This document shows, in pieces, positions 6,001 through 30,752 of a DNA stretch of 64,000 nucleotides; within the stretch, counting starts at the first letter, position 1; each line of letters begins with the position of its first letter. Made by a program: the position numbers and the translations under genes. Origin of the DNA: Candidatus Omnitrophota bacterium (GTDB lineage Bacteria > Omnitrophota > Gorgyraeia > Gygaellales > Profunditerraquicolaceae). The DNA lies in contig JAQTQC010000005.1 of the NCBI GenBank assembly GCA_028712505.1, positions 7,051 through 71,050 of the forward strand. Reading direction: 5' to 3'. The notes below the pieces were generated by a model. It was not told the origin of the DNA. It did no database searches and was given only the letters and a program-made list of their open reading frames with translations.

Positions 6001-9000
6001 CGTCCTACGTATATACCGTAAGTAACTTCCAGGTAAAGACAATGATTGCAGTTGCGGCAACCCAGCAGATAATGGATTCAGGAGAAATTACAGGTGTTAC
6101 CCTGACTCCTGGCACCTTGTCAGATATTTCCGTAACTGCCGCTTCTGCGGAAGTAAGTGCTTTAACGAATTATACATTTGCATTCAAGACAGAAAACAGT
6201 ATTGCTGCCGGTACTGGTAAGGTGGCAATCAGCCTTGATAGCGATTATGATTTAAGCGCCGTAGAGTCAAATAACGTTTCAGGTAATTCCGGAGCTACGG
6301 TAAGCGTAAGCGGTAATACCCTGAGTATAACTTTAGGTACTGCAATTGCCGCCAAGGAATCTGTTTCCTTGACGGTTTCTAATATCAAGAATCCTTCTTA
6401 TGTACAAACTACAGGTAGTGTAACAATCAGCAGTAAAGTTCAAATAAATTCCGTAGATTATGATAAGGACGGCGGAATCCTTGCTTCAGGCCCGGCAATA
6501 ACTTCAGGAGATTTTACTAATGTATCAATAAGCGCTACTTCTCAGATAGCCGGTGAAGATTCAATTTATACCTTTGGATTTACCCCGGGGCATAATGTGT
6601 CCGCAGGAGGGTTTATCTATATTGGTTTTGAAACGGGTTATGATGTATCCGGGGCTTATCTCACTGGCTCAACCGGTTCAGGCGAATATGCTGTTGCCAG
6701 TTTAACTTCTACTCAGGTAGTTTTGAATGTCACGGCGGCGATAGCTAAAGGGGAGGCCCAGACTATCAGCCTAGGCGGCGTAGTCAACCCGCAATTTGTC
6801 AAGGATGTGATTTGTACGCTTAAGAGTGCTAATGCGTCTTCCGGAATAATCGATGAAAGCGATACGCCATCATTAAGCATAACACCTGCTCCATTGGCTG
6901 TTTTATCTATAAGCGGCGCTTCTTATGTCGCCCAGGATGTTACTTCCTATACGATCGCTTTTACAACTGTTAACCCGATTGATCAAAATGGAGAGGTAGA
7001 AGTTGAGTTTGATGCAGATTATGATTTAAGCGCTGTTCAACCAGGTAATGTCACAGGAAATAGCGGTTCAAGCGTATCCGTAAGCGGTTCTAAACTGATT
7101 ATTAATTTGGGTACTGCGGTTGCTTCAGGAGAGCAGGTTTCATTGGTAGTTTCCAATATCAAGAACCCCGGCGTGCAGACAACCGGTAGTTTTAATCTCG
7201 TAACCAGAAATTCCAGTGGCAATTACCTGGATTACGGTGGGGTTGCCGGAACGGCTATCACCGCTGGTTCACTATCCGGACTTTCAGCAACTCCAGGGAC
7301 TACTGAAATCGACGAAAGCACAAGTTATACATTCAATCTTACGCTTGGCCATAGCGTACCTACCAATGGTTATGTAAGGGTTCAATTTGACAATAACTAT
7401 GTCCTGACCAATGCGACGGTAGTTACCAGCGGTTATTCTTTGACTAAAGGTACTAATTATGTTTTGTTGAAGAGGACCGGTTCGGCGCTCTCTGGTGCGA
7501 TTTCCATCCAATTAAATAGCATAATTAATCCTTCTTATGTGTCCAACACTTTAGCCGGTTTTGCCATTCAGACGCAGCTGTCCAATAACCAGGTTATTGA
7601 TACAGGTACGGCAGGAGCGATCACTACAACCGCAGGTGCCTTGTCTGCTGTAACAGCCGTGCCGGCATCCTTGGGAGTAAGTACTCTTACAAGTTATACC
7701 TTTAACTTTACTACAGACCATGCTATACCCTCCGGCGGTAAGGTTCTTATAACTTTTGATTCCGACTATAATTTAACTTCTGTCCAGGAAGGCAATGTCT
7801 CAGGTGTTGCTGATTCAGTTGTTGCAGTTTCCGGCAATGTGCTCACTGTGACTTTAGGCCAGGCTATTGCCGCAAAAACCTCTGCTTCACTGGTTATTTC
7901 CAATATCAGAAATCCGTCTTACGTCCAGACTACAAACAATTTTGCTTTAGAGAGCAGAAACAGCTCTAATGCCTTGATTGACCAGGGTACAGCTGGCGGA
8001 GTGACTACTGTTACCGGTATTGTCACGATTTCTTCAATCACAGCTTCTACTTATGTTGCCGGTAGTACTAATGCTCAATATACCTTTAATTTTGCGCCGA
8101 CCAATGCGGTTGCCGCCGGCGGATATCTAAGGGTAGATTTTGATGTTACTGATAGCGCGTATAATGCTTCCAGCGCTATTGTTTCAGCAGGCGGCTCTAC
8201 CTTTGTTATCCCGCAGGGAGGGGCTAATAAGAATTATGTCAACCTGACTTTTACTCAGAACGTAGATGCAGGAAGCCCGCTTTCTTTGCAGCTTTCAGGT
8301 ATAGTCAATCCTGTTTACGCCAAGAATGTAACTTTCCGGTTGACTACTAATATCTCAACGGGAGAAAAAATAGATACGTCTGATTATGGTCCGGTAGTAA
8401 TCACTCCGGCTCCTTTGGTCGGGACATCTTTAATAATGGGCAGTACTACAGCTCTGGATATCAGTAGACATACATTTAGTTTCACTACTGTCAACGCTAT
8501 TGACGTTGGAGGTAAGGTTGAGATAACTTTTGATTCCGATTATGTGTTGACCGGGGTAGGCTCGGGTAATGTCTCCGGAAATTCCGGCTCAACTGTTGCA
8601 GTAAGCGGCAGCAAGCTTATTGTGACTTTGGGCACAGCGGTTTCTTCTGCAAGCGAAGTTGTCTTAGCCATCGATAATATCAAGAATCCTGGCGCGCAGA
8701 CAACAGATGCTTATGCTATTGTAACTAAGAATTCCGGAGGTTATCAACTGGATCAAGGTAGTGTTGCAGGTAAAACAATTACCGCTGGCGTTTTGACAGT
8801 TTTATCTGCTGACGCCACTACTTATGAGGTGGCTGAAAGCGCAAATTATACAATTAATTTTACGTTGGCGCATAATATACCGATAAATGGTTATGTAAGG
8901 GTGCAGTTTGATGATAACTATACTCTGACCAATGCGACGGTAGCGACCAGCGGGTATGCCTTGACTGGAACCGGAAGTAATTATCTTTTGCTCCGGACGG

Positions 9001-12000
9001 GTTCCGAACGTTCTGGTGCGATTTCCATCCAATTAAATAGCATAATTAATCCTTCTTATGTGTCCAACACTTTAGCCGGTTTTGCCATTCAGACGCAGCT
9101 GTCCAATAACCAGGTTATTGATACAGGTACGGCAGGAGCGATCACTACAACCGCAGGTGCCTTGTCTGCTGTAACAGCCGTGCCGGCATCCTTGGGAGTA
9201 AGTACTCTTACAAGTTATACCTTTAACTTTACTACAGACCATGCTATACCCTCCGGCGGTAAGGTTCTTATAACTTTTGATTCCGACTATAATTTAACTT
9301 CTGTCCAGGAAGGCAATGTCTCAGGTGTTGCTGATTCAGTTGTTGCAGTTTCCGGCAATGTGCTCACTGTGACTTTAGGCCAGGCTATTGCCGCAAAAAC
9401 CTCTGCTTCACTGGTTATTTCCAATATCAGAAATCCGTCTTACGTCCAGACTACAAACAATTTTGCTTTAGAGAGCAGAAACAGCTCTAATGCCTTGATT
9501 GACCAGGGTACAGCTGGCGGAGTGACTACAACCGCTGGCACCTTAACCAGCGTATCCGGAGCTGCCGTTAACTATGCTGCAGGAGCCGAGACACAGTATA
9601 CCTTTAATTTCATGCCTGCCAATGATGTTGTAACAGGAGGCTATGTAAAGATTGAGTTTAATTCTGAATACAATATTACCGGTGCATATCTGATCAGCCC
9701 TTCAGCTAAGTACAGTATTTCTACTAAAACAAATAATATTATTGTACTGAATGTGCTTGCTGATGCATTAGCTTCTAGCTCCCAGAGCATAAGCATCGGC
9801 GGTATAGTTAACCCGGGCCGTGAGAAAACAGGCATTAAATTTACAGTAACCACGCTTACCTCTAATAGTGCCAATATCGATACTGCTCAATCAGCGGCTA
9901 TAAATATAACCGCAGGTGTATTGACTTCGAGCTCCGCCACAGCCAGCACCTATACAACTTATGATTTAGCGTCTTATACATTTAATTTTACTACTGCCAA
10001 TGCCTTGGATGTGGGCGGTAAGGTCGAGATAACTTTTGATGCGGATTATGATGTGTCGGCAGCGGTATTTACTTACGGGAATGATAATTCTACACTTTCA
10101 GTATCTGGACGGGTGGTTACTATCACCTTGGGCACAGCGATAGCCAAGCAGGAAAGCGTAACTCTGACTATATCTGAAATCCGTAACCCGGGAGTCCAAT
10201 CTACAGACAGCTATGCGATAGTTACTAAGGATTCCAGCGCGACAAGAGTAGATACTGGTACGATCTCCGGTAAGGTAATTACCGGAGGCGGAATGAGCGC
10301 TACTTCCGTGACTGCCGGTTCAACTCAGCCGGCTGTTACTACAAATTATACATTTGCCTTTACACCTGACCATATAATTCCTACCGGTGGATATATCAGG
10401 GTTACTTTTGATTCGGATTATGTCTTAGACTATGTTTCTGTGCAGACAGCAGGTTATGCCGCCAGCACCGGACCGGGATACGTGCTTTTAACTAATACCA
10501 GCGGAGGTAATCTGTCTGGTGCGCGCAGTATAGTATTGCTCAATGTCAAGAATCCTGCTTCTGTTAAGGAGCCGACAGGTAATTTCTACATTACAACTAT
10601 GACATCGAATCAGGATACTATAGATACTGCTACTCTTACCGGCATCACTATGACTCCTAGCCCGATAACAGTTTCATCTATTTCAACGGTTTCAGCCGAA
10701 GTCTCGGCGCTTACTTCTTATACCGTCAAGATTACTCCGATACATACTATCCCGATAGGCGGCAAGGTCTTGATCACCTTCGATAGTGATTATAACTTGT
10801 CAAATATCGGTTCCGGAGATGTGTTAGGTAATAGTTCTACTGCCTCTGTAAGCGGTAATATCTTGAGCGTTACCCTGGGCGAGATGGCTTCTCAGGGGAA
10901 TGTGCTTACTTTGGTAATCTCGGATGTGCAGAATCCGTCATATGTGCAGACAACCGGCGTATTCTCAGTAGTGACTAAGGATGCCTCGGGGTATAAATTG
11001 GATTCCGGAGATATAGCTGGTATTTCCATAACTGAAGGCCAGTTGACCAATCTCTCGGCAACTCCGGCAAATACTACTTTGGATACCATAACTAGTTATT
11101 TATTCCAGTTTACTCCGGAGCATACCATACCCTTAAACGGTTATGTCAAGATAACCTTTGATTCTGATTTTGATTTAACCGGTGCTTATAGCGGAACTGG
11201 CAGCTATTCTATTGTCTCTTTGGAGAGCGGTTATATCTTGCTTAAAGCTTTAGCTGAGAAGTCCACTGCTCAAAGCCTGCAGATCCTGAATGTTAAGAAC
11301 CCGTCATATGTCCAGACTACAGACGCTTTTTCAATTACTACACAGGATGCCAACCAAAAGAATATAGACGTGGGTAATGCCTCCGGTATTACTACTACAG
11401 CAGGTGTCCTTTCCGCAGGTTCAGTTAGCCAGACTTCCACGCAGGCAGGTACTACTACGAGTTATACCTTTAACTTTACTACGATCCATGCAGTTGCCGC
11501 CGGAGGCAAGGTTGAAATAACCTTTGATTCGGATTATATCCTGACTTCCGTAACCGCTTATAATGTCTCCGGGATCGCCAATTCCACGGTCGCGGTAAGC
11601 GGAAATAAACTAATCGTTACTACGGGAACAGCAGTTTCCGCCGGGGCTCAAGTTGCGTTGACAATCAGCAATATCAAGAATCCGGCTTATGTGCAGACAA
11701 CTTCCGCTTTTGCAATAGATACTAAGAATGTTTCCGGAGGCTTGTTGGATAGCGGGACCATTCCTGGCATAAACATTACCGCTGGTTCGTTATCGTCGGT
11801 TTCAGCTACGCCGGTTTCTACCGAGGCAGCCAAAAGCACGGATTACACGTTTAACTTTACCACTGAACATAGTTTACCCGCAGATGGGTATGTGCAGATA
11901 GAGTTTGATCCAGCTTATGATTTATCTACTTCTGTAGTCTTGACATCGGGATATGCATTGGTAACCCGGGGCAGCAATTACCTGAAGTTGCAGACTTCTG

Positions 12001-15000
12001 AGATAAGGAGTGGTTCTATCAGTATAGTGTTGAGGAACATAGTCAATCCTCCTTATGTGGCAACGAGTTCAGCCTTTACCGTAATCACGCAGACATCCAC
12101 AGGGGATACCGTTGATATGGGTACTTGCAGCGGTATCACGACTACGCCTGCTGCTTTAACCAGCGCATCTGCGAGCGCTGCTTTGACTGAGGTCAGCAGC
12201 CAGGGTGACTACACCTTTATTGTTACTCCTCAGCATGATATACCTATAGGAGGCAGGATCAGGATAACCTTTGATAATGATTATACTCTCACTAATGTAG
12301 TTTCAGGTAATGTTGCCTGCAGCGGAGGTAATGCCACAGTATCAGTTAGCTCCAAGACCTTAATTATAACATTAGGCTATGAGTTGGTCGGCGGAACAGA
12401 AGAGAGTATAGTTATATCTAATATCAAGAATCCGTCTTTTGCGCAAACCACAAATAATTTTACTATAGTAACAAGGGATGATCAGGACAGGACGATCGAT
12501 CAGGGCGCAGCCAGCGGTGTGGTTATAACTGCCGGGGCGTTGACCGCGATATCTGTAACCGCTGATTCCCTTGTGGCAGGTTATACTTCAGTTTATACCT
12601 TTAACTTTACTCCTGCTCATGCCGTTAATTCCGGAGGTTATGTTGTAATAGATTTTGATTCTGCTTATAATGCGGCATCAGGTTATGTGGTTAGCCCTTT
12701 GAGCACATTCAGCTTATCTTCCAGGTCAGCCAATAGAATAACCCTTAGTGCATTAGAAACTTTGCCGGCTGCTACGGCCCAAAGTGTTACCATCGGCAGT
12801 ATAGTCAACCCGGGTTCCGTAAAACAGGTTACCTTTACTATTAGTACTCAGAATTCTACCCAGAATAATATAGATACGGCTGTTTCTCCGGCTATCAGTA
12901 CACAGGCAGCTCCGATGACGGCTGTTTCGGTAAACGCTGTAAGCAAGATTGCTTTAGACTCGACCTCATACACCTTTGTTTTTACTACCGTCAACTCAAT
13001 AGAGGCCGGAGGTAAGATCGAATTTACCTTTGATTCTGAATATGACCTTACGCAGGCCACATATGCTTCTGGTCTGATCGGTGGCTCAACTGCATTGGGA
13101 GCGACATTGGCTGTAAGCGGCAGTAAATTGATTTTGACTACTACTACCGCAATCAGTACGCAAGCAGGGGTTTCAGTGGTTTTTGCAAATATCAAGAACC
13201 CGGGTGTGCAGACAGTAGATAATTTTGCTATTCTTACGAGAAACTTAAACAATAATGAACTTGATCAGGGTACTGCAACAGGTGTTGCTATAACCGCAGG
13301 TTCCTTGACCGGTTTATCAGTGACTGCCGGTTCAACCGAGATAGGCGCCACTTCAACTTATAGTTTTGGTTTTACAGTAGCTCATACTGTGCCGGTGAAC
13401 GGATATGTGAAGATATCTTTTGATAGCGATTATTCATTCGCCAACGCCAATGTCTTAAGCGAGGCTTATGTAATAACCGATAAACAAAGCAACTTTATCC
13501 TCTTAAGAAGGAGCGCGCAGCTTATCGGGGCAAACACCCTGCAGTTAGGTAATATAGTAAATCCGTCTTATGTTCAGGCTACTGACCCCTTTGTTATTAC
13601 CACCCAGCTTAGTGATAATAAAATAATAGATACAGGAACTACACTGAGCGTAAATATTACTCCTGGTTCCCTGACCCAGTTGTCTGCAAGTGCGGTTAAT
13701 CCGTTAATCAGCGCAGTAAGTTCTTATAGTTTTAGTTTCAAGACTACTCATGCCGTAGAAGCTGGCGGCAAGGTAGTAATTACATTTGATGATGATTACG
13801 ATTTGAGCCTGGTTTCTATAGGTTCTCAGGATATTTCAGGCAGCGGTACTCCAGCGATTGAGTCAAAAGAAGGCAAGAAGCTGAATATCGTTCTTTCTAC
13901 AGGTGTATCAGCTTCTGCGACTGTTTCTTTAAGTATCTCTAATATTACGAACCCCAGATATGTGCAGACTACGTCCTCTTTTGTATTCCAGACTAGAACT
14001 GTTTCAGGAGCAGCTATAGATGAAGGATTGTCCGGCGGCATAACAACTACTGCCGGTACATTAACCGGTATTAATATAGCTTCAGGTAGTGCGATAGCAG
14101 GTGCCAGGACAGATTATACCTTTACTTTTACTCCTGCCCACAGCGTAGAGGCTAATGGTTATTTGAGGATTGACCTGAACTCTCAGTATAATGCAGGCAT
14201 ATCTTATGTGATGAGCCCTACAGCGCTATTTGAAATATCTGATAAAGCTGCTAACTATATTACAGTTAAGGCCCTGTCCGCATTGACCGCTGGGACATCT
14301 TATTCTGTAAGGTTGGGTAATATTGATAACCCCGGGCGTTCAATGGACGTTACATTTACTTTGACTACCAAGACTGCTTCCAGCGCTAATATAGATACAG
14401 GTATTAGTTCAAGCATGCATATCACGCCTGCTCCGATGCAGTCAGCATCCATTTCTTCAAGCAGCTTGATTGCTACGGAGACAGCTACTTATACCTTGAA
14501 TTTTGTGCCGGTAAATACAATAGATGATGGCGGTAGGGTTGAAATTACCTTTGATTCTGATTATGTGCTTACCGGAGTAAATAGTGTTACTGGTTTTGAT
14601 GCCAGCATAGCGGTTTCTGGCAGTGTCCTGATTATTACTTTGAATACCCAGCTGGAAGCAGGGGAAGCCTGTTCTTTTATCATCCCGAATATCAAGAATC
14701 CGGGAGCCCAGACTACCGATGCATTTTCTTTGGTTACTAAGGATTCTACCGGTACCTCTTTGGACGAGGGGACCATAGCCAGCAAGGTTATCCAGGCTGG
14801 CGCATTAGGCAGTCTTTCTGTTTCTGCTGATTCTTACGAGGTAATGGGTACAAGCGAGAGCGCTACCTATACTTTTAATTTTACCTGTGTCCATGCAATC
14901 CCTGCTAACGGCTACATCAGGATAGGTTTTGATACGGATTACTCTTTGGATAATGTAGTCAATTTAAGCTCCGGATATCTGATATCTTCTAAAGGGGCAG

Positions 15001-18000
15001 GATATCTGTTGATCAGGACTACTCAGGAACGCAGTGGAGCCTGTTCCATACAGCTAAGTGGAATAAGGAACCCTTCTTATGTGCAGACAACCGATAATTT
15101 CACAATCGCTACGCAATTAGCTACGCAGCAAAATATTGATACCGGAACTATCGGAGGTATTACTACTACGACCGGCTCTTTAACCGGACTTACGGTATCT
15201 ACGACTAATTCTAAGATTGCTGAATCAGCTGTCTATACTTTTAATTTTACAGCAGACCATGCTGTTGCAGTAGGGGGTAAGGTAGCTATAACCTTTGATG
15301 CTGATTATGACCTGACAGCGGTTACTTCTACCAGTGTTTCCGGTAATTCCGGTTCGACCGTATCGGTCAGCGGTCATGACCTGATAATTACCTTAGGCGA
15401 GCAGATCTTTGCTGCAGGTAACGTGTCTCTGGCTGTATCCAATATAGTTAATCCGGCATATGTCCAGACTTCGGATGCCTTTGTTATTAAGACCAAGAAT
15501 CCTGAAGACGGTTTAATCGATACTGGCAATGCATCCGGGGTGACGCTTGAACCTGGCGTATTGGGCAATGTAAACGTCAGTTCAAACGATTTGCAGGTTA
15601 ATGCCCAATCAATCTATACCTTTGTTTTTACTCCTGCGCATCCAATTCCTGCCAACGGGTATATTAAAATAGACTTGGATAATGACTATGATATAAGCGG
15701 GGCATATCTTTATCTGGTATCAGGCTATTCTTTTGAGAAAAATACGAGCGATGTGTATTTTACATTACAGGCAAATAGCGCTAAACCCGCAGGTACTCCT
15801 TTAACGATATCGATAGCCGGTATTATTAACCCGCCATACAGTCAGACCACGGATAGTTTTATGATTAATACCCAAGCAGCCAATCAAAGCGGTATTGATT
15901 CTGGCTTAGCCAACGGTGTGGAGATTACTGCCGGCCAGCTTTCAGGTGTTTCTGTGGTTTCTGCCGGAAATAACTATGTAGTTGGAAATCAGGTAAATTA
16001 CACTGTAGCCTTTACTACTGTTAATCCTATAGGAGTAGGAGGCCAGGTTAAAGTTACTTTTGACGCAGATTATGGTTTTGCTTTAAATGGCGCTGTATCG
16101 GGTAATGCGGGAGCTACAGCTGCGGTAAATGCGAACGTGGTTACTGTAACTTTAGGTACTGCGGTTGCGGCTAATCAGGCAGTCAGTTTGACCTTGGGCA
16201 CTTTTACTAACCCAGGATATGTGCAAAAAACAGATGAGTTTTTGATCAAGACATTTGATTCGGCGGGATACGCCCTGGATTCAGGCAAGACATTGGGCAA
16301 GGATATAACTACAGGCGCCCTTACCTCTTTAAGCGTAAATTCAAGTTCAGCCAGCGTGCTTAACGCAGATACAAAATTGACCTTTAGTTTTAATGCCCCG
16401 CATGTGATTCCGCTTGATGGTTTCATTAAAATTAACTTAGATAGTGATTATAGCGTGGTGTCGCCTTATATCAAGAGTTCCAGCGGAGCCAGCCTGACTT
16501 TGCTTACGGAGGCTGGAAGCCAGGCCGGATATCTTTTATTTAAACTAAATTCTGCGGCTTCCGGGGCAATAAGCGTGGAAGTCGGAGGTATTACCAATCC
16601 CTCTTATGAGCAGACTACCCAGAATTTTGTGATTACTACCATGTACACCGGAGAAGAAGGTATCGACACCGGTACTATTCCGGGCCTGGTAGTTAATTCC
16701 GGATCCTTGGTCATCAGTTCTGTGGCCTGTTTGGATAATTACGCCGGCGCCACCACGACATATACTGTTAATTTTGCCGCGGTTCATGCTATCGCGGTCA
16801 CGAGTAAGATCGAAATTGTTTTCGATAGTAATTATAATTTAGCCGGTGCCGAATTGAGCAGCCCATCCGGGAGTTTAACTGTTTCAGGAAGTACTTTGAG
16901 CATATCCTTAGAGGCAGAAGCAGCAGCTTCTTCCAATGTAAGTTTGAATATAGCCGGTATAGTCAATCCGGGTTATTCTCAGACAACTGATAACTTCAAG
17001 GTTACAATTAAGGATGTTGGTGGGAATACCGTAGATAAGGGTGAAGGTTCGGGTATTGCTATATTGCCGGCTAGGATAGAGTTTATCACTCCTGCTGCCG
17101 GAGATATTTATTCTGTCGGAGACAGCAAGATCATTAAATGGCAGGTGACCGGAGGTGATATCTCCCGGACCAGCAGCCATTGGTCAGTGCAGTTTGCCTC
17201 GGATACTAATTTCACTTCGCCGATAACCGTACATGAAGGCCTGGCAAGTGTTGATGCAAATAGTAACCTGTATTTTACGTTATCCGTGGATGTGAGTATG
17301 CTTTCAGAGAATGCTTATCTGCGGGTGACTTGTATCGATAATTCATATACGGATGTTACGACAACTTCCGGAAGATTCAGCATAAGGCCGGTTGCCGGGT
17401 TCATAGGCTATATTTCTCCGGCGTCTTCATCCGCGAAATGGGCTATTGGAAGCAGCAGTACGATAGAATGGTCTACGCAAGGGGCGACGAGCAATAATTT
17501 TAAGATTGAATATTTTGCCAAGAATATCTGGACAACTATTTATGAAGAAGGGGTTACTGGTTCAGCGCTGGTTATCAAGAGTGCCGGAGACCATTGGTAT
17601 GAGGATAAGTGGTCCTATAGTTGGGCCATACCTGAAGCAGCTAACTTGCCCGATACCGGCGTGCAGGTCAGGGTTACTAATATAGATAATAATATAATTA
17701 CCGGCACTACCGAGGCCTTCGAGATAGCTACTGCTTATATAGAAATCACCAGCCCGGCAGAAGGGTCTACTTGGGTAAGGAATGAAACTAATAATATCAC
17801 TTGGGAAGGGCAGGGTGAGTCGGGTACTAATTTCAGCATTCAGTATGTTGATTCAACCAATGCGGTTACCGTAGATATCTATAGCGGGACAATAGAAAGA
17901 ACGCTTTCCGAGGGTAAATGGCTGTACAGTTATTCCTGGTTGGTAGGCATAGACCTTGAACCTACGGACACGGCAGTAATAACGATAACTAACCTGGATA

Positions 18001-21000
18001 ACAACAAAATCGTTGATACTTCTTCTGTATTTAGCGTTAATGCCAGCGGTAAGCTGGAGATAACCGCTCCAGTAGAAGGCGGCAGATGGGTTGCCGGAGC
18101 CAGATATACGATAAAATGGAATTCCGAGGGACAGGCGCTCAGTTCATCTTCTTTAAGGATAACCTATACTGCGGATGGTATCAGCGAAACCTTGATCACC
18201 AACTCTACTTCCAATACCGGAAGCAAGGATTTTACCTGCCCATCGACTACGTTAAATAATGTAAAGATTCGTCTTCGTCAGATAAACGGGGATGTTACTG
18301 CTGAGTCCGGAGCTTTCAATATCGTGGCTGTTCCTTCTCTCCAGTTTGTCTCTCCGGCTGCCAACGACAACTGGGTTGCCTCATTCACCAAGGAGATAAA
18401 ATGGAGCGGAGTTGGGGAAGGGCTTACCAAGGACCTGGTGATCAAATACTCAACCGACGGCGGCTCAACCTACGCTAATACAATTTTTAACTATACCACC
18501 GATTCTTTTGATGAAAAGATTTCAGCCGTAACTACAGGTACAGTTACCAATTATACATTATCATGGGTTGTGCCAGTTAATTACAGCAGCAATGTGAAGA
18601 TAAAGATCGAAGATATGGGGATAATGCGTCTAGTTAGCGGAAGTTATACTCCTTTAAGTCTGGTCAGCGGTAAATTCTCCATAACTGCCCCTCTGGCGAC
18701 TATTGTCCAGCCAGCAGGAGGAGAAGAGTGGATATCCGGTACCGAGCATGATATCATCTGGTCGGAAACAGGTTCTTTGGGTAAAGATATCAAGATAAGT
18801 TATTCTGTTGACGGTGGCGCAACCTACCCTTATGTTATTTTCCAGAATTCTTCCGGCGATTCCACGGTGTATGCTAATTATATAACTGTTGCGGATAATT
18901 TATTCAGCTATAAATGGGTGGTTCCGAATACTATTTCCGCCCAATGCCGTATCAAGGTAGAGGGTCTGTCAAATAGCGGAAACGGAACTTCCCTGGCTAA
19001 TTTCTCGATCAAGCTGCCATCTATTACGATAACGTCTCCTGTAGCTACAGATTTGTGGGCAATCTATGATAGCTCTCGGATAATCACTTGGAATACCGTT
19101 GGTAATGTCAGCGAGCATTTAAAGATAGAATATTTCAAAGATGAATCTACTTCCAAGGTCATATTGGAGGATACTAATGGTCCGATGACTTCTTATAGCT
19201 GGGATGTAACCGAGGATTTCATAGATTATGTTTCGCCAAGCGGCTGGATAAAGATTACGGATTTAAATTCTGAGTCTACCTTTGCTCAGAAGGTTACTGC
19301 TGTATCGGAGCAGTTTGAATTGTCTCTGCCAGGATTTGATATCGATGTCCCGGCGGTTCCCTTGATCACGGGAAGTTCTTATACTATAACCTGGCAGGGT
19401 GTTGGTGCTTATTCTGCTTGCAGCAGCGAATCGGGTAATACTGTACGTTTAGAGTATGGCGTCGGGGATAATCCTACCTGGGTTACTATTGCCACATCTA
19501 CGCAGAATGATGGTTCATATGAAAACTGGACGGTACCCGACAGGCATTCCAGCGATGTCAAATTCAGGATCACGAATAACAGGTATTCCTTTATTTCTAC
19601 TGTCTCCAGCGCCTTCAAGATCATGGGGTCATTCTCGGTTACCAGCCCAGCTGCCGCAACCAAGCTTTTTGTGGGCAAGGAACAGATGATCGAATGGAGC
19701 ACTAACGGTACGATTAATAAAGTAAATCTTTATTATTCGAAGAATGGCGGCTCAACCTGGACTACCCTGGCTTCTAACACTACTAATAACGGATTCTATG
19801 TCTGGATAATACCCGACGCGGTACTCATCGACCGTTCGCCTAATCCGAACATCTATTTCAAGATAGAAGACGCTACCGATGCAGCAGTTTATGCCAGCAG
19901 GCAGCTTACGATAAGTTATTATAAGGTTACTTGGAATGTTATCGATGCCGATGGCTTGGTAGGTGATTTGGACGGCTTAAGCGTAAATACCCTTGATGTT
20001 AGCAATGATAACGCGGTATGGGAAGATAGGACAGGTTTGAGCTGTTCTGCTTCCATCCGGAACGCTGGTATTGATGCCGATGATATAGTGCTCTATTATT
20101 ACCCCGGCCATCTTTATCAGACTACCTGGTCAAGAGACGCTTATCTGGATGCTACTGTCCAGCCTTCGCCGTGGACAGCAGATGCCGACGGTAAAGAATT
20201 TACCGTAACCTTGGCTACTATGCTGGTGACGAAAACAAGGACTGTGTATTCTTCTGTGACATATGATGCTTCGGCAGATACCTTAAGTATACAGTGTTGG
20301 CTGCAGGAAGAGGAAAAGTTATTGACTGAGATAGCCGGGTTGCAGGGGGCACTGGTAATTATTTATGATGATGAGGATAACGAGATTAAGACTTTTGAAT
20401 ACACGGCTGCGCAAGCAGATGCCAGCGGTGTCTTCTGGACAAAATGGGTTAATCCCGGCTTGCAAAGAAATAAGTCTTATTTTGCCCGTTTTAGGATCCA
20501 GTTCGAAGGAGCATTCCATTACGGCGGTAAGACATTTGAGATAAGTTCAGCTTCACAGATCGACGATATTGCCGAATCGGTAAGTGCCGGAGTCGTTGCT
20601 ATCACATCGGCAATTGCCGAAAGCTCTCAGGAGATAAAAGAAAAAATAGAAGAGACAGCAACCGAGACGCAAACTAAGGTGGCTCAGGCTGTCAGTACAG
20701 CTCAGGCATCGATAGAGGGCACGGTTACGGTTATCGGTGAGGAAAATAAGGCTGCGATCGGTAGCGCTTCAGCGGCGATAAGAGAAAAAGTCGGGAAAGA
20801 ATCCTCCAGCCGTATATTAAACGGAGAGGCTTTTATTAAATCAGGGAATAAATTAAAGATTCGCTATCAGACTGATTCCAAGTTAGCTCCGGAAATAGAT
20901 GTATATGATCCTAAAAATATTCAGCGTATAACTAAAGGCGTAATGACAGAGGTTGGAGATACGGGTGTTTATGAATATGAGGTCAATTTCTTGAGTGGCT

Positions 21001-22169
21001 GGGGAGAAGGTTCATATTCAATTGTTTGTTCTGAGCCGACCTTGGGGACTATTGATGGCATAACCATAGAAATCGTAAACGCGGATTTGGAAGATATCAA
21101 TAGTGCTGCAGTTGTCTCGATGTCCCAGTTGTCCAATATCGATACCGATGATATGAAGAGTTTGTCTACGAGTATAGGCGTGGTCAGCTCAAGCATCGAG
21201 AAGATCGTCGGTACAATGACTGACCTGGGTTCGATGAGTACTCAGATTTCCGCATTGACCAATGACATCCAGAAGACTGTTTTTGACCAGCTTTCTGTTG
21301 CTTCCGAAAAGATGAGAGAGATAGCTAAGCAGCAAAACGTCAAGATAGACAAGATGATCGATGTGTCTGAGAAGGGTCGGGAAGATGTGGATTATCTTAA
21401 GAAGAAGACTTTGGAGATCAAGGCTACAGCCGAGCTTACCAATGACATAATCACCAGGACAAATGATAAGCCGATAACTAAATCGTGGCTTGAGCCGGGA
21501 AGTATTTTAATGAACGCAGTTGTGGTTAATCCTTCCACCACCAAGAGTCAGACTGCCATGCTTAAAGCTTATCTGCCTGTGGAGAGCAAGCCTGAGGACA
21601 TAGTGGATTTAGGCGATCTTTCTGTAAGTTATGATGTCCAGGAAAATCTTTATTACGTATATAAAGAATTTACCCTTGGCCCTGGTGAAATGGCTAAGCG
21701 TCAGATAGAACTTAAAGATGTGTGGGTAATCCCTGAAAGCGAACTAAACGCGAATATAGAAAGAATAAATGAGATGCTTCAGGATCTTAAGGGGAGCACT
21801 TTCTATAATAGGGCTATGGTTATAAAAGATACTATTCAAACAAGGGTAGCTCAGATCCTGGATGCGCAGAAAAAAGCTATCGATGCCTTGCCTGATGTTC
21901 ATATCGCAGCTTACAGGGCGAATATGAAGATATTAAATACCATCAAAGAAGACTTGGCTAAAGTTGAGGCTATGCTTCTTCAGGCTAAGCCAGCTGTTGG
22001 TTTGGCGTTCAATAAGGTCTTTGTTAAAACCAGCTGGTGGATAATTTTGCTGGTAGTCATTTTCTTGGGTGTACTTTCGTTCGGACTTTTTATCATCTGG
22101 CATAAACAGGCCAAGGCGGCTTTGCTTGAGAAGAAGGCGGATAAGACTGATGAGCCGATAGGTCAATAG
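1..22169 (+). CDS. giant repetitive, tail-anchored cell-surface protein (5'-partial; >7,388 codons inside window)
   Basis: One open frame runs from window position 3 to TAG at 22167-22169. There is no in-frame stop upstream of the GTG at 75, and the upstream in-frame peptide (..SYYSFTTKKATGEVRDQNAQ) looks like the end of another module, so the gene continues 5' of the window. The translation is periodic: LVIVD-type repeats; about 42 modules containing NYTFNFT..H.[IV]P.GG[KY]V.I.FD.DY and ending in [KRI]NP.YVQTT; nine I[TS]SP..G..W..G....I.W..G repeats; an Ala/Glu/Lys/Ile-rich coiled coil; and a C-terminal hydrophobic helix WWIILLVVIFLGVLSFGLFIIW followed by a basic tail. A 22-kb frame with no stop cannot arise by chance. 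Confidence 0.85.
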   Translation, partial: AKLTSYYSFTTKKATGEVRDQNAQVAKNTIVAGSLTNLSATSSITEVSERIESSPYLTLNFTLAHQLPIGGYVKISFDTDYVFPTDTFCVTNDYNLYSDDSTKIMYLQRVSSPVAVGATSIQLANIKNPAYVQTTGNFSITTELSSHDPIDTGSAGGIGIVAGSLTNASVAPVSDIVSEFTSYTVNFTNDHMIAAGSKVAITFDADYGFKLLGRYACVASLADSSLTLMDISNPASPVLKSEISDEAGGFNKLAGAKSVYVSGSYLYAASSIDNSLTIIDISNPASPVLKSEIYDETAGFTKLAGAQSVFVLGNYAYVASSTDNALTIIDISNPASPVLKAEITDGSGGFTKLAGAKSVFVSGNYAYVASSTDNALTIIDISNPASPVLKAEITDGSGGFTKLAGAKSVFVLGNYAYVASSTDNALTIIDISNPASPVLKAEVYDGDGEFNRLAGIESVYVSGNYAYITSSTDNSLTIMDISDPANPVLKSEVYDGDGEFNRLAGAYSVYVSGNYAFVVSSADSSLTIIDVTNPMNPALKSEAYNEDGQFNKLGAPFAVFVYGNQVVPGNAGATVAASGSVLNVTLGSPIGANEAVSLQLDNIRNPYYVQTPDVFQVQTKNSAGGVVDQNLSVASVPVTKGAFTGLSVTAADREISKSDNYTFTLTYSHPVPKDGYLKIEFDSDYDLSSAYLVSPTDRYTYLWSSGWNYIELKLKEGIIADTSDTIVLGSVKNPSFVQQTSEHRFTTLSTDATGNAVIDQSNLTGLIIIGGKLTGVSVSAANNIVTETTNYTINLTTKNPMSLNPSIKVSFDPDYNVSGAAFVSGTVDGVAMVTQNPALTIDTNNNVVTLNLAMDITNSTAAVSFVLSGIVNPGYEQTAAFDITTQYGGNDIDITDPAAKPSVAIAAGTITSASVTPATTEVSESGNYVFNFTLPHALATGSFLRIQFDPDYVLTNTNCQTSGYSLSKGLDYILLQRTGAQLTGAQSLTLGNVKNPSFVQTTSNFIIKTEDSGNNKIDGAEVSGVTTTTGALTGLSLTPLDYTVANTTAYNIAFTTDHAIVQNGKIEVTFDSDYALTGVGSADVSGNPGSTVAVSGNKLTITLGTAIAAATPVSLQVANIVNPVYVKTTNSFAFRTMDAAAGLLDQGTASGVTTVAGTFTASSVTSTYYTTGKTDVSYTFNFTYAHNVPLDGFLRIDFDPDYDVASVAVAHANYTKQEAGANYVILKLLAAKPKGTVESITLSNIKNPGYAQTVTFDIKSMNTTGSVIDTVTTPSINIVPAALTALSRSSNTYIATESASYTIGFTTVNAIPAGGKVEITFDPDYVLTSVASGNVSGNSGSTVAVSGNTLIVTLGTNIPALTASSLVISNIKNPGAQSTGSFSLLTKNVSGYSIDQGTVSGVTIITGSLSGLSTVPVHTKVSYSTNYTFGFTVAHSVPVGGFIKIQFDSEYDLSSAFVVGDYTISKVDNYIYLQRNVSALSGAVTVELRSIKNPAYVQSTDTFVITTELSNHDPIDVGSAPSIVTTAGTLTATSVAPATTVVAENTAYTLNFTTEHAIAVGGKVEITFDPDCDLSLVFPGDVSGNSDSTVAVSGNKLIVTLGEALDAGVSETLVISNIKNPPYVKETNTFFVQTKNPSGGVIDEVTAASITTSTGVLGSPVITPASLVSGATTSYSFKFTPAHAVPLNGYLRIDFDSSYDLASPGAVVMSSTTACDITLRGAGYLLIKFSSSGLSAGVEQTVGIANVVNPPNVKSLEFTLTTKDASLYDIDTVKISGISTTAGSLSSSSLTANTYVVSEYATYTAVFTTANPIAVGGKVEINFDTDYVLSSVESTGVSGNPGSTVAVSGSKLVVAIGTAIAKNTPVSLAIANIKNPVYVQATDSFLIQTKTVDDAIIDTATATSINITAGALSGLSVSATSKKISDITSYTFNFTAQHVIPADGFIRIQFDSNYLLGSAYLDTASFYSLDRGSDYLRFKTVAQINAGQAVSIPISTIANPSYVYTVSNFQVKTMIAVAATQQIMDSGEITGVTLTPGTLSDISVTAASAEVSALTNYTFAFKTENSIAAGTGKVAISLDSDYDLSAVESNNVSGNSGATVSVSGNTLSITLGTAIAAKESVSLTVSNIKNPSYVQTTGSVTISSKVQINSVDYDKDGGILASGPAITSGDFTNVSISATSQIAGEDSIYTFGFTPGHNVSAGGFIYIGFETGYDVSGAYLTGSTGSGEYAVASLTSTQVVLNVTAAIAKGEAQTISLGGVVNPQFVKDVICTLKSANASSGIIDESDTPSLSITPAPLAVLSISGASYVAQDVTSYTIAFTTVNPIDQNGEVEVEFDADYDLSAVQPGNVTGNSGSSVSVSGSKLIINLGTAVASGEQVSLVVSNIKNPGVQTTGSFNLVTRNSSGNYLDYGGVAGTAITAGSLSGLSATPGTTEIDESTSYTFNLTLGHSVPTNGYVRVQFDNNYVLTNATVVTSGYSLTKGTNYVLLKRTGSALSGAISIQLNSIINPSYVSNTLAGFAIQTQLSNNQVIDTGTAGAITTTAGALSAVTAVPASLGVSTLTSYTFNFTTDHAIPSGGKVLITFDSDYNLTSVQEGNVSGVADSVVAVSGNVLTVTLGQAIAAKTSASLVISNIRNPSYVQTTNNFALESRNSSNALIDQGTAGGVTTVTGIVTISSITASTYVAGSTNAQYTFNFAPTNAVAAGGYLRVDFDVTDSAYNASSAIVSAGGSTFVIPQGGANKNYVNLTFTQNVDAGSPLSLQLSGIVNPVYAKNVTFRLTTNISTGEKIDTSDYGPVVITPAPLVGTSLIMGSTTALDISRHTFSFTTVNAIDVGGKVEITFDSDYVLTGVGSGNVSGNSGSTVAVSGSKLIVTLGTAVSSASEVVLAIDNIKNPGAQTTDAYAIVTKNSGGYQLDQGSVAGKTITAGVLTVLSADATTYEVAESANYTINFTLAHNIPINGYVRVQFDDNYTLTNATVATSGYALTGTGSNYLLLRTGSERSGAISIQLNSIINPSYVSNTLAGFAIQTQLSNNQVIDTGTAGAITTTAGALSAVTAVPASLGVSTLTSYTFNFTTDHAIPSGGKVLITFDSDYNLTSVQEGNVSGVADSVVAVSGNVLTVTLGQAIAAKTSASLVISNIRNPSYVQTTNNFALESRNSSNALIDQGTAGGVTTTAGTLTSVSGAAVNYAAGAETQYTFNFMPANDVVTGGYVKIEFNSEYNITGAYLISPSAKYSISTKTNNIIVLNVLADALASSSQSISIGGIVNPGREKTGIKFTVTTLTSNSANIDTAQSAAINITAGVLTSSSATASTYTTYDLASYTFNFTTANALDVGGKVEITFDADYDVSAAVFTYGNDNSTLSVSGRVVTITLGTAIAKQESVTLTISEIRNPGVQSTDSYAIVTKDSSATRVDTGTISGKVITGGGMSATSVTAGSTQPAVTTNYTFAFTPDHIIPTGGYIRVTFDSDYVLDYVSVQTAGYAASTGPGYVLLTNTSGGNLSGARSIVLLNVKNPASVKEPTGNFYITTMTSNQDTIDTATLTGITMTPSPITVSSISTVSAEVSALTSYTVKITPIHTIPIGGKVLITFDSDYNLSNIGSGDVLGNSSTASVSGNILSVTLGEMASQGNVLTLVISDVQNPSYVQTTGVFSVVTKDASGYKLDSGDIAGISITEGQLTNLSATPANTTLDTITSYLFQFTPEHTIPLNGYVKITFDSDFDLTGAYSGTGSYSIVSLESGYILLKALAEKSTAQSLQILNVKNPSYVQTTDAFSITTQDANQKNIDVGNASGITTTAGVLSAGSVSQTSTQAGTTTSYTFNFTTIHAVAAGGKVEITFDSDYILTSVTAYNVSGIANSTVAVSGNKLIVTTGTAVSAGAQVALTISNIKNPAYVQTTSAFAIDTKNVSGGLLDSGTIPGINITAGSLSSVSATPVSTEAAKSTDYTFNFTTEHSLPADGYVQIEFDPAYDLSTSVVLTSGYALVTRGSNYLKLQTSEIRSGSISIVLRNIVNPPYVATSSAFTVITQTSTGDTVDMGTCSGITTTPAALTSASASAALTEVSSQGDYTFIVTPQHDIPIGGRIRITFDNDYTLTNVVSGNVACSGGNATVSVSSKTLIITLGYELVGGTEESIVISNIKNPSFAQTTNNFTIVTRDDQDRTIDQGAASGVVITAGALTAISVTADSLVAGYTSVYTFNFTPAHAVNSGGYVVIDFDSAYNAASGYVVSPLSTFSLSSRSANRITLSALETLPAATAQSVTIGSIVNPGSVKQVTFTISTQNSTQNNIDTAVSPAISTQAAPMTAVSVNAVSKIALDSTSYTFVFTTVNSIEAGGKIEFTFDSEYDLTQATYASGLIGGSTALGATLAVSGSKLILTTTTAISTQAGVSVVFANIKNPGVQTVDNFAILTRNLNNNELDQGTATGVAITAGSLTGLSVTAGSTEIGATSTYSFGFTVAHTVPVNGYVKISFDSDYSFANANVLSEAYVITDKQSNFILLRRSAQLIGANTLQLGNIVNPSYVQATDPFVITTQLSDNKIIDTGTTLSVNITPGSLTQLSASAVNPLISAVSSYSFSFKTTHAVEAGGKVVITFDDDYDLSLVSIGSQDISGSGTPAIESKEGKKLNIVLSTGVSASATVSLSISNITNPRYVQTTSSFVFQTRTVSGAAIDEGLSGGITTTAGTLTGINIASGSAIAGARTDYTFTFTPAHSVEANGYLRIDLNSQYNAGISYVMSPTALFEISDKAANYITVKALSALTAGTSYSVRLGNIDNPGRSMDVTFTLTTKTASSANIDTGISSSMHITPAPMQSASISSSSLIATETATYTLNFVPVNTIDDGGRVEITFDSDYVLTGVNSVTGFDASIAVSGSVLIITLNTQLEAGEACSFIIPNIKNPGAQTTDAFSLVTKDSTGTSLDEGTIASKVIQAGALGSLSVSADSYEVMGTSESATYTFNFTCVHAIPANGYIRIGFDTDYSLDNVVNLSSGYLISSKGAGYLLIRTTQERSGACSIQLSGIRNPSYVQTTDNFTIATQLATQQNIDTGTIGGITTTTGSLTGLTVSTTNSKIAESAVYTFNFTADHAVAVGGKVAITFDADYDLTAVTSTSVSGNSGSTVSVSGHDLIITLGEQIFAAGNVSLAVSNIVNPAYVQTSDAFVIKTKNPEDGLIDTGNASGVTLEPGVLGNVNVSSNDLQVNAQSIYTFVFTPAHPIPANGYIKIDLDNDYDISGAYLYLVSGYSFEKNTSDVYFTLQANSAKPAGTPLTISIAGIINPPYSQTTDSFMINTQAANQSGIDSGLANGVEITAGQLSGVSVVSAGNNYVVGNQVNYTVAFTTVNPIGVGGQVKVTFDADYGFALNGAVSGNAGATAAVNANVVTVTLGTAVAANQAVSLTLGTFTNPGYVQKTDEFLIKTFDSAGYALDSGKTLGKDITTGALTSLSVNSSSASVLNADTKLTFSFNAPHVIPLDGFIKINLDSDYSVVSPYIKSSSGASLTLLTEAGSQAGYLLFKLNSAASGAISVEVGGITNPSYEQTTQNFVITTMYTGEEGIDTGTIPGLVVNSGSLVISSVACLDNYAGATTTYTVNFAAVHAIAVTSKIEIVFDSNYNLAGAELSSPSGSLTVSGSTLSISLEAEAAASSNVSLNIAGIVNPGYSQTTDNFKVTIKDVGGNTVDKGEGSGIAILPARIEFITPAAGDIYSVGDSKIIKWQVTGGDISRTSSHWSVQFASDTNFTSPITVHEGLASVDANSNLYFTLSVDVSMLSENAYLRVTCIDNSYTDVTTTSGRFSIRPVAGFIGYISPASSSAKWAIGSSSTIEWSTQGATSNNFKIEYFAKNIWTTIYEEGVTGSALVIKSAGDHWYEDKWSYSWAIPEAANLPDTGVQVRVTNIDNNIITGTTEAFEIATAYIEITSPAEGSTWVRNETNNITWEGQGESGTNFSIQYVDSTNAVTVDIYSGTIERTLSEGKWLYSYSWLVGIDLEPTDTAVITITNLDNNKIVDTSSVFSVNASGKLEITAPVEGGRWVAGARYTIKWNSEGQALSSSSLRITYTADGISETLITNSTSNTGSKDFTCPSTTLNNVKIRLRQINGDVTAESGAFNIVAVPSLQFVSPAANDNWVASFTKEIKWSGVGEGLTKDLVIKYSTDGGSTYANTIFNYTTDSFDEKISAVTTGTVTNYTLSWVVPVNYSSNVKIKIEDMGIMRLVSGSYTPLSLVSGKFSITAPLATIVQPAGGEEWISGTEHDIIWSETGSLGKDIKISYSVDGGATYPYVIFQNSSGDSTVYANYITVADNLFSYKWVVPNTISAQCRIKVEGLSNSGNGTSLANFSIKLPSITITSPVATDLWAIYDSSRIITWNTVGNVSEHLKIEYFKDESTSKVILEDTNGPMTSYSWDVTEDFIDYVSPSGWIKITDLNSESTFAQKVTAVSEQFELSLPGFDIDVPAVPLITGSSYTITWQGVGAYSACSSESGNTVRLEYGVGDNPTWVTIATSTQNDGSYENWTVPDRHSSDVKFRITNNRYSFISTVSSAFKIMGSFSVTSPAAATKLFVGKEQMIEWSTNGTINKVNLYYSKNGGSTWTTLASNTTNNGFYVWIIPDAVLIDRSPNPNIYFKIEDATDAAVYASRQLTISYYKVTWNVIDADGLVGDLDGLSVNTLDVSNDNAVWEDRTGLSCSASIRNAGIDADDIVLYYYPGHLYQTTWSRDAYLDATVQPSPWTADADGKEFTVTLATMLVTKTRTVYSSVTYDASADTLSIQCWLQEEEKLLTEIAGLQGALVIIYDDEDNEIKTFEYTAAQADASGVFWTKWVNPGLQRNKSYFARFRIQFEGAFHYGGKTFEISSASQIDDIAESVSAGVVAITSAIAESSQEIKEKIEETATETQTKVAQAVSTAQASIEGTVTVIGEENKAAIGSASAAIREKVGKESSSRILNGEAFIKSGNKLKIRYQTDSKLAPEIDVYDPKNIQRITKGVMTEVGDTGVYEYEVNFLSGWGEGSYSIVCSEPTLGTIDGITIEIVNADLEDINSAAVVSMSQLSNIDTDDMKSLSTSIGVVSSSIEKIVGTMTDLGSMSTQISALTNDIQKTVFDQLSVASEKMREIAKQQNVKIDKMIDVSEKGREDVDYLKKKTLEIKATAELTNDIITRTNDKPITKSWLEPGSILMNAVVVNPSTTKSQTAMLKAYLPVESKPEDIVDLGDLSVSYDVQENLYYVYKEFTLGPGEMAKRQIELKDVWVIPESELNANIERINEMLQDLKGSTFYNRAMVIKDTIQTRVAQILDAQKKAIDALPDVHIAAYRANMKILNTIKEDLAKVEAMLLQAKPAVGLAFNKVFVKTSWWIILLVVIFLGVLSFGLFIIWHKQAKAALLEKKADKTDEPIGQ
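640..1700 (+). repeat. array of ~7 LVIVD-type beta-propeller repeats (~50 aa / 150 bp each) inside the giant gene
   Basis: Repeated peptide G(N/S)YAYVASSTDNALTIIDISNPASPVLKAEI.DG.GGF.KLAGAKSV.V matches the LVIVD repeat consensus found in archaeal and bacterial surface proteins. Confidence 0.7.
991..1290 (+). repeat. two tandem 150-bp units, 149/150 identical (single c/t difference at 1087 vs 1237), flanked by further partial copies (935-990, 1291-1328)
   Basis: Direct comparison of 991-1140 with 1141-1290 in the sequence. Confidence 0.9.
7491..8008 (+). repeat. copy A of an exact 518-bp intragenic direct repeat (one full module)
   Basis: 100% identical to 9012-9529 (offset 1521 bp), checked line by line. 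Identity breaks at 8009 (t) vs 9530 (a). Confidence 0.9.
9012..9529 (+). repeat. copy B of the exact 518-bp intragenic direct repeat
   Basis: Identical to 7491-8008. Encodes the same 172 aa (SGAISIQLNSIINPSYVSNTLAGFAIQTQ...DQGTAGGVTT). Confidence 0.9.
17070..19830 (+). repeat. nine ~95-110-aa Trp-containing repeats (I[TS]SP..G..W..G....I.W...G), KNH/Kre9 (GPI-anchored-family)-like
   Basis: Peptides IEFITPAAGDIYSVGDSKIIKWQVTG, YIEITSPAEGSTWVRNETNNITWEGQG, KLEITAPVEGGRWVAGARYTIKWNSEG, SLQFVSPAANDNWVASFTKEIKWSGVG, SITITSPVATDLWAIYDSSRIITWNTVG and others. Confidence 0.6.
22032..22100 (+). other. C-terminal transmembrane anchor of the giant protein (tail anchor), followed by a Lys-rich 24-aa tail
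   Basis: Hydrophobic stretch of about 22 residues WWIILLVVIFLGVLSFGLFIIW, then HKQAKAALLEKKADKTDEPIGQ. Confidence 0.6.
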
Positions 22170-23126: not shown

Positions 23127-23144
23127 AGTTGGAGGATTGAATTA

Positions 23145-24059: not shown

Positions 24060-24268
24060 AAAATCTAACTATTATCCTGATTATGTTGATCAGCACCTTA
24101 GGGCCCTCAGCTGTTATTGCAGCAGTGGGTTTTTCCGGGGTTAAGGCAATCGGAAGAAACCCGTCGGCAGCTCCTAAAATATTAATTTCCATGGTTTTGG
24201 CTTTTATTTTTGCCGAAGCTATAGCTGTAATCGGGCTTTTGGTGGTATATAACTTGTTTGGGCAGTAA
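24056..24268 (+). CDS. atpE: F-type ATP synthase subunit c (proteolipid), 70 aa
   Basis: Two-helix hairpin with the loop GRNPSAAP and the conserved carboxylate in helix 2 (IFAEAIAVIGLL). Confidence 0.8.
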   Translation: MKNLTIILIMLISTLGPSAVIAAVGFSGVKAIGRNPSAAPKILISMVLAFIFAEAIAVIGLLVVYNLFGQ

Positions 24269-24313
24269 ATAAATTCTTAAATTTGTATTCAGTGTTCCCT
24301 CGCTTATACGCTC

Positions 24314-24334: not shown

Positions 24335-24384
24335 TTCGCAAGCTCGGGATTTCGCTAAATAAGAGCATAAGGTGCTCAAATTCG

Positions 24385-30748: not shown

Positions 30749-30752
30749 GCAG

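Follow-up and report, generated by a model that had tools for sequence, protein, structure and literature searches.

The window analysed here, a stretch of 64,000 nucleotides from contig JAQTQC010000005.1 of a Candidatus Omnitrophota bacterium, opens inside a gene for a giant protein. Our subject is a block of nine repeats on the C-terminal side of that protein, which appear to be Ig-like (immunoglobulin-like) domains of the Pfam Kre9_KNH type (PF10342). The reading frame is already open at the window start and ends with a stop codon at 22167-22169, so that at least 7,388 amino acids are visible. The repeats are consecutive, measure 95-119 amino acids each and occupy residues 5690-6637 (nucleotides 17070-19913) when cut at the recurring I-x-[ST]-P. 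In window coordinates, the frame and its repeats, with Pfam E-values and hidden Markov model (HMM) scores, are as follows:

3..22169, forward strand: giant open reading frame, stop-free from nucleotide 3; listed as an open reading frame at 75..22169
17070..17396, forward strand: R1, 109 amino acids; the most divergent copy, with the first and third Trp replaced by Tyr and Phe; PF10342 E-value 0.051; leave-one-out score 39 bits
17397..17732, forward strand: R2, 112 amino acids; leave-one-out score 56.9 bits
17733..18047, forward strand: R3, 105 amino acids; PF10342 E-value 0.04 over the full model length
18048..18332, forward strand: R4, 95 amino acids; PF10342 E-value 0.0029; external-profile HMM score 53 bits
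18333..18689, forward strand: R5, 119 amino acids; Asp-box STDGGSTY
18690..19016, forward strand: R6, 109 amino acids; Asp-box SVDGGATY; the copy used for the structure model
19017..19328, forward strand: R7, 104 amino acids; placed by HMM segmentation
19329..19625, forward strand: R8, 99 amino acids; top single-repeat match to PF10342, E-value 0.00044, 21.4 bits
19626..19913, forward strand: R9, 96 amino acids; Asp-box SKNGGSTW; external-profile HMM score 63.9 bits

A preliminary description of the sequence had placed nine repeats at 17070-19830. HMM segmentation shows that the count and the start were exact, while the real end lies 83 nucleotides further, at 19913. No antisense open reading frame longer than 97 amino acids covers the interval first described, nor does any other overlapping frame of that size exist there on either strand. 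An Rfam scan of the window gave no match.

The repeats resemble one another well beyond chance. HMMs built from eight of them score the ninth at 36-57 bits, and an external HMM, whose 83 source domains all come from non-Omnitrophota proteins, picks out the nine segments (13-64 bits) and nothing else along the 7,388 residues. Shuffled decoys of the repeat region (n = 200) reach at most 5.5 bits. The gaps between successive HMM envelopes amount to 0-2 residues, which leaves the repeats without linkers. The possibility that the recurring motif reflects chance or a low-complexity composition rather than a domain array might draw on two observations. The pattern first proposed, I[TS]SP..G..W..G....I.W...G, has zero literal matches and recurs solely as a consensus, and the protein is rich in Ser and Thr throughout (24-25%; 23.9% in the repeats versus 25.5% in the upstream fibre region, hence no enrichment in the repeats). 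This explanation is already refuted by the leave-one-out scores, by the distance between the external-profile scores and those of the shuffled sequences, by a confident AlphaFold model, and by the retention of nine copies in eight genomes.

The mean pairwise identity among the nine repeats is about 27% (18-38% between neighbours). Tandem Repeats Finder detects no DNA-level tandem repeat in the nine-repeat block, so the copies must be old. A recent repeat expansion was considered and rejected, as the copies share no DNA similarity.

The repeats had been described as KNH-like, and a search with the PF10342 HMM had been proposed as the check. That search gives a divided result. The gathering cut-off of this model, which has 94 positions, is 24.6 bits. 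When the 948-residue repeat region is scanned alone, it scores 26.6 bits (E = 1e-5). Among single repeats, five of the nine give full-length yet sub-threshold matches of 14.8-21.4 bits (E-values 0.00044-0.051), covering model positions 1-94 in R1 and R3, 2-92 in R4, 10-94 in R8 and 1-83 in R9; the other four give no match. The wider family is more informative. Among 91 single domains drawn from it, PF10342 is the top Pfam match, found in 44 (best E-value 5e-6), followed by Reelin_subrepeat-B in 19 and Big_7 in 13. Homologues that align along the whole array (P0005-P0012) score 35-83 bits on PF10342, and a Fibrobacteres protein, P0016, reaches 176.6 bits with four individually significant stretches. 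A profile of the nine repeats aligned by hhalign to five domains of P0016 gives a probability of 98.1%, with an E-value of 1.1e-13 over 92 columns. NCBIfam returned no match on the repeats. Taken at the level of sequence profiles, these data support the assignment of the repeats to PF10342.

Two points weigh against this assignment. Direct support from PF10342 is marginal, with no single repeat at the cut-off, and the family is not listed for the region when it is scanned within a 1,889-residue segment (E ≤ 0.01). The repeats could then belong to another ordinary bacterial Ig-like family, such as Big_7 or an Fn3-like one, with the Kre9_KNH label a weak match by chance. The Big_7 and Reelin_subrepeat-B matches in the wider family would fit this explanation, as would the hhalign comparison with the N-terminal domain of yeast Kre9, which yields a probability of 0.2%. 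However, the yeast comparison is powerless: repeat profiles score 0.1-0.2% against this single domain, and the strong PF10342 member P0016 likewise scores just 0.45%. The Reelin_subrepeat-B and CHB_HEX_C matches are confined to a short hairpin. More of the 91 domains match PF10342 than any other family, and the alignment to P0016 runs over the full length of the domain. We therefore regard membership of a different family as very unlikely.

An AlphaFold2 model of R6 alone, with the 91-domain alignment as input, is an all-β sandwich with a predicted local distance difference test (pLDDT) score of 96.5 and a predicted template modelling (pTM) score of 0.88. Its structural matches include the Fn3-like modules of CbhA (7.9) and a haloarchaeal surface-layer (S-layer) domain (7.7); hundreds of other Ig-like matches are as good as the latter. 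Foldseek returned antibody V domains only, with E-values of about 1e-4 and template modelling scores of about 0.5. Sequence searches of the PDB with the nine-repeat and 91-domain profiles found no solved homologue, only the Asp-box piece of reelin and Ig domains at noise level. On the basis of the model, the repeats are nine individually folded Ig-like β-sandwich domains arranged head to tail. An ordinary Fn3 or Ig fold had been expected to speak against the KNH reading. What was found is a generic Ig-like sandwich, yet the opposition is a false dichotomy, because Pfam itself names PF10342 the "Kre9/KNH-like N-terminal Ig-like domain". The repeats have their Pfam domain family in common with Kre9 and Knh1, yet the giant protein itself does not count as a Kre9/Knh1 protein.

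When all nine repeats are aligned, the only invariant residues are P8, I20, W22 and G26 (R8 numbering). The first Trp is present in six of the nine (Tyr or Leu in the others), the second in all nine, and the third in seven (Phe in the other two). The repeats contain 30 Trp residues (3.2%) versus zero in the 5,048-residue fibre region upstream, and "Trp-marked", as they had been called, is a fair description. The second Trp follows the conserved Ile at a distance of two positions (I-x-W) and points to the same side of the strand; its conservation across the 91 domains is at least 90%. Because the I-x-W pair lies on one strand face and the other two positions are replaced solely by Tyr, Leu and Phe, the conserved Trp residues look like hydrophobic-core residues of the sandwich rather than ligand contacts, as far as sequence can indicate. 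A canonical Asp-box (S-x-D/N-G-G-x-T-W/Y) is present in R5, R6 and R9, in the hairpin after the third strand. The weak Pfam matches to Reelin_subrepeat-B, CHB_HEX_C and BNR correspond to this short hairpin alone.

These features bear on the suggestion that the domains mediate cell-wall or glycan binding. By analogy with the part of fungal Kre9/Knh1 in β-1,6-glucan assembly, the nine domains might fasten the protein to peptidoglycan or to a polysaccharide layer, which could be that of the bacterium or that of its host. The name-giving members of PF10342 do act at the fungal cell wall (PMC13604645), the repeats are rich in Trp, and the Asp-box hairpins of R5, R6 and R9 recur in reelin and in chitobiase-type sandwiches. 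Against this, no carbohydrate-binding module family is among the Pfam matches of any repeat or of the whole repeat region. The Trp residues alternate with conserved aliphatics or are exchanged for Leu, Phe and Tyr, as core residues are. The fungal-specific domain Kre9_KNH1_C (PF05390) was not matched anywhere in the giant protein in Pfam scans that had yeast Kre9 as positive control. Moreover, even for Kre9/Knh1 no biochemical role has been defined, and glycan binding by these proteins has not been demonstrated (PMC13604645). A glycan-binding role is therefore unlikely.

The yeast Kre9 sequence used in these comparisons was verified by its Pfam match and by 99% identity to the database protein P0185. 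It scores 166.2 bits on PF05390 and 46.7 bits on PF10342. A database search with it returned 2 proteins only, too few for a fungal profile.

The use of such a domain in a bacterial giant protein had been thought unusual, a view that the distribution of the domain does not bear out. Searched against 1.84 billion cluster representatives, the 91-domain profile matches 49,002 at E ≤ 1e-3, 25,747 at E ≤ 1e-10 and 7,148 at E ≤ 1e-30. Among the best matches, proteins of 1,300-6,900 amino acids with Ignavibacteriaceae and Bacteroidia as named examples, the number of tandem copies is 10-59. Many of the matched proteins are T9SS (type IX secretion system) proteins of Bacteroidota or Ignavibacteria, and the named carriers of the domain comprise Ignavibacteria, Bacteroidota, Fibrobacteres and Omnitrophota. 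Distant homologues of the array, from Bacteroidota, Ignavibacteriales and metagenomes, show 25-28% identity over most or all of it, and several of them have a T9SS sorting domain. In one, P0013, a reprolysin peptidase head (212-416) precedes the repeats (561-1037), and a T9SS sorting domain follows (1332-1411). Two Bacteroidota-type relatives, P0004 and P0006, consist only of 12-14 domain copies and a T9SS sorting domain, with no head. A homologue search with the domain alignment as query returned only 7 short proteins. The repeats thus belong to a very common bacterial Ig-like module, and their presence here is ordinary.

The remainder of the giant protein comprises the following features:

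81..17048, forward strand: fibre region, 42 tandem β-sandwich units of about 125 amino acids, Trp-free, with weak DUF2808 similarity
735..1673, forward strand: LVIVD β-propeller repeats (PF08309, E-value 5.7e-70, seven stretches), inside fibre unit 2
19914..22034, forward strand: region of 707 amino acids between repeats and anchor (residues 6638-7344), family-less and the most conserved part among orthologues
22035..22100, forward strand: predicted transmembrane helix WWIILLVVIFLGVLSFGLFIIW (residues 7345-7366), the sole strongly hydrophobic stretch
22101..22166, forward strand: Lys-rich C-terminal tail of 22 amino acids, HKQAKAALLEKKADKTDEPIGQ, following the helix

The fibre units were delimited by HMM segmentation and extend from residue 27 to residue 5682; R1 begins 7 residues past the last of them. 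One unit, modelled with its 40 paralogues, is a β-sandwich with a pLDDT of 97.1. Pfam gives the weak DUF2808 match to this unit, and neither NCBIfam nor a PDB sequence search returned anything for it. Fibre unit 2 (window 471-1898) is split by the LVIVD repeats, HMM positions 1-55 corresponding to residues 157-244 and positions 62-122 to residues 558-632. The propeller is a domain-in-domain insertion and not a separate N-terminal head. At the DNA level, a tract of about 500 nucleotides occurs twice in the fibre region with 100% identity. Its copies, at about 7495-8000 and at about 9016-9521, are offset by 1,521 nucleotides or four fibre units, and two units are consequently identical at the protein level. 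This tract reflects either a recent gene conversion or duplication or an assembly artefact. The nine repeats differ in this respect, being ancient and having no DNA similarity among them.

Downstream of the repeats, the 707-residue region has no significant match in Pfam, NCBIfam or PDB sequence searches. Judged by eye from its sequence, β-rich stretches seem to alternate with long helical ones. The helix that follows is the only stretch in the 7,388 residues with a mean Kyte-Doolittle hydropathy above 2.0 in a 19-residue window. By the positive-inside rule, the Lys-rich tail would be cytoplasmic and the rest of the protein would lie outside the cytoplasmic membrane. A sortase, PEP-CTERM or T9SS sorting signal at the C-terminus was considered and rejected, given that neither NCBIfam nor Pfam gives a match and that the tail is too long. 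The repeats had been called membrane-proximal, which holds in that they lie on the C-terminal side, past the fibre, but only in a relative sense, since 707 residues separate them from the transmembrane helix. The truly membrane-proximal module is this uncharacterised region rather than the nine repeats. The domain order is an N-terminus beyond the window, 42 fibre modules with an LVIVD insert, nine Kre9_KNH-type domains, about 700 residues, a transmembrane helix and a tail.

The closest relatives of the repeat region are partial proteins from metagenome-assembled genomes (MAGs) of Candidatus Omnitrophica/Omnitrophota, at 69-75% identity. When the C-terminal 751 residues were compared with one genome per GTDB species, nine loci were found at 61-87% identity, either in Omnitrophota MAGs or in MAGs labelled "uncultured Planctomycetales/Planctomycetia". 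These relatives place the window in an uncultured member of the Omnitrophota. The orthologue comparison covers the eight full loci (L001-L008) and 10 kb upstream of the C-terminal region. All eight have exactly nine repeats, whose lengths agree position by position (107/111/104/94/119/109/104/99/98). Orthologous repeats are on average 69-78% identical, versus about 27% within the protein. This fixed number and length, the higher identity between orthologues than between paralogous copies, and the lack of a DNA-level repeat indicate that the array is ancient and that each position has its own identity. The repeats are conserved to about the same degree as the last fibre units (72%), and the 707-residue region more so (80-84%). 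The ratio of nonsynonymous to synonymous substitution rates (dN/dS) of the giant protein against the eight orthologues is 0.04-0.16; it is about 0.04-0.13 for the conserved array, with dS near saturation, and 0.04-0.08 for the 707-residue region.

The genes that follow the giant gene are:

22350-32226: genes for a secreted Peptidase_MA_2-like protein; a response-regulator GGDEF diguanylate cyclase; ATP-synthase-like b, alpha, gamma and beta; GspE; and GspF
33090-36762: genes for the type II secretion system (T2SS) proteins T2SS-J and T2SS-K, PilM/N and PilO, following GspF

Downstream of the giant gene, all eight loci have one and the same gene order up to GspE/F, where they end. The genes for GspE, F, J and K and for PilM, N and O lie 7-14 kb downstream of the giant gene, and the ATP-synthase-like gene set sits between it and the secretion genes. 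Tandem-repeat scaffolds next to genes of T2SS or type IV pili (T4P) are a described class of long proteins in Omnitrophota (10.1101/2023.11.21.568195; 10.64898/2026.06.07.730766).

We propose, with moderate confidence, that the nine-domain block is a fixed-length, semi-rigid stalk close to the end at which a giant surface protein is anchored. It would hold the long distal fibre and the propeller away from that end. An Ig-like domain is about 4 nm long, and from this per-domain figure the stalk would measure about 35-40 nm. This proposal is based on the linker-less sandwiches, on their constant number and lengths across species, and on moderate purifying selection. The block is flanked by a long distal array on one side and by the anchored end on the other, which also argues for the proposal, as does the corresponding placement in P0013.

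Several considerations weigh against the stalk. Its rigidity is an inference. The N-terminus of the giant protein, with any signal peptide, falls outside the window, and a protein with an inner-membrane anchor would still have to cross an outer membrane. In P0004 and P0006, the array may itself be the working surface and not a passive spacer. Furthermore, the per-position conservation would equally fit nine distinct binding surfaces.

The last point leads to an alternative in which the domains mediate protein-protein contacts, either by lateral self-association into a coat or lattice or by docking, for example to T2SS/T4P-like machinery, with each of the nine positions having its own partner surface. 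The identity of each repeat to its orthologues (69-78%), as opposed to 27% to its neighbours, is compatible with such a role, and so are the existence of proteins made of this domain and a surface-sorting signal alone (P0004 and P0006) and the conserved synteny with secretion and pilus genes. However, the repeats are less conserved than the 700-residue region downstream (80-84%), which is not what specific interfaces would show. The S-layer match does not stand out among hundreds of Ig-like matches. We consider protein contacts rather improbable as the role of the array.

A bolder version of the stalk proposal is that the nine domains act as a molecular ruler of about 35-40 nm. Together with the 700-residue region, they would reach from an anchor in the inner membrane across the entire envelope of an ultra-small Omnitrophota cell to its outside, the protein possibly being exported by the adjacent T2SS/T4P-like system. 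We hold this to be quite unlikely. If true, diderm cells would have a new means of carrying a fibre of more than 5,000 residues.

The nine-repeat finding opens no long-standing question. Its value lies partly in correcting an annotation trap. The label "Kre9/KNH" (formerly "Ser-Thr-rich GPI-anchored", for glycosylphosphatidylinositol-anchored) sounds fungal and hints at cell-wall chemistry. In prokaryotes, PF10342 denotes an Ig-like unit that is among the commonest from which large surface proteins are built, and therefore no function should be transferred from yeast Kre9. The analysis also provides a clean domain map for one conserved family of giant Omnitrophota proteins, which may be useful for expressing or imaging them. 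Within the region compared, the architecture is stable and under purifying selection across eight species.

Comparison with known systems places the array more precisely. Fungal Kre9/Knh1 and the Ser-Thr-rich GPI-anchored proteins match the same Pfam model over its whole length (46.7 bits for yeast Kre9 and 26.6 bits for the nine-repeat region). They have in common with the repeats the N-terminal motif I-x-S-P...V/I-x-W...G, and both would be extracytoplasmic. In contrast, the fungal proteins have one N-terminal copy instead of an array of nine; Kre9/Knh1 carry PF05390, which the giant protein does not; and the fungal proteins are GPI-anchored or secreted, whereas here a predicted transmembrane helix is followed by the 22-residue Lys-rich tail. 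A GPI signal and a distinct Ser/Thr-rich stalk, which characterize the Ser-Thr-rich GPI-anchored family, are absent here, and the fungal role in β-1,6-glucan assembly has no bacterial counterpart. The likeness to reelin subrepeat B and the chitobiase C-terminal domain is narrower. They have the Asp-box hairpin in common with the repeats, and the hairpin piece alone matches reelin in the PDB, but the similarity is limited to about 20 residues and the remaining domain cannot be aligned.

Among long proteins of the phylum, the tandem-repeat scaffolds of Omnitrophota (West-Roberts et al. 2023; Nielsen & Lui 2026) are likewise dominated by repeats and have a membrane anchor and T2SS/T4P neighbours. 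The secretion genes are downstream here and upstream in West-Roberts et al. (10.1101/2023.11.21.568195), and with its visible length of at least 7,388 residues the giant protein is of modest size for such proteins. Kre9/KNH, LVIVD and DUF2808 domains go unmentioned in both papers (10.1101/2023.11.21.568195; 10.64898/2026.06.07.730766).

The T9SS-sorted PF10342 arrays of Bacteroidota, Ignavibacteria and Fibrobacteres are built from the domain found here. Identity to the array is 25-28% for P0004-P0010 and P0012, with 57-97% query cover; P0016 is weaker by direct alignment (22% identity over 32% of the query), although hhalign gives it 98%. These arrays are also linker-less and head to tail, with 5-14 copies in the first matches and up to 59, and Asp-boxes are frequent in them. 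At least one of these proteins, P0013, has its array placed after a functional head and before the surface anchor. The anchors differ, a C-terminal sorting domain in these relatives and a C-terminal transmembrane helix in the giant protein. Copies here are 95-119 residues long versus about 93 in the T9SS-type relatives, owing to loop insertions. They are also far more divergent among themselves than the T9SS-type copies, and the host protein is much larger and belongs to the phylum Omnitrophota.

Bacterial fibrillar and giant adhesins, such as RTX adhesins with their Big-type arrays, have stalks in which Ig-like domains follow one another in tandem. As in those proteins, a non-catalytic string of β-sandwiches lies here between an envelope anchor and distal domains. 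Two features of giant surface proteins are present, a tandem linker-less array of β-sandwiches (42 + 9) and, as a single hydrophobic helix, a predicted envelope anchor. The adhesins are generally anchored by an N-terminal retention module, in conjunction with a type I secretion system, or by LPXTG, whereas the giant protein has its transmembrane helix. In addition, the repeats of an adhesin usually differ little from each other, and strains usually differ in how many they carry, while the nine repeats described here are ancient, distinct from one another and constant in number across eight species.

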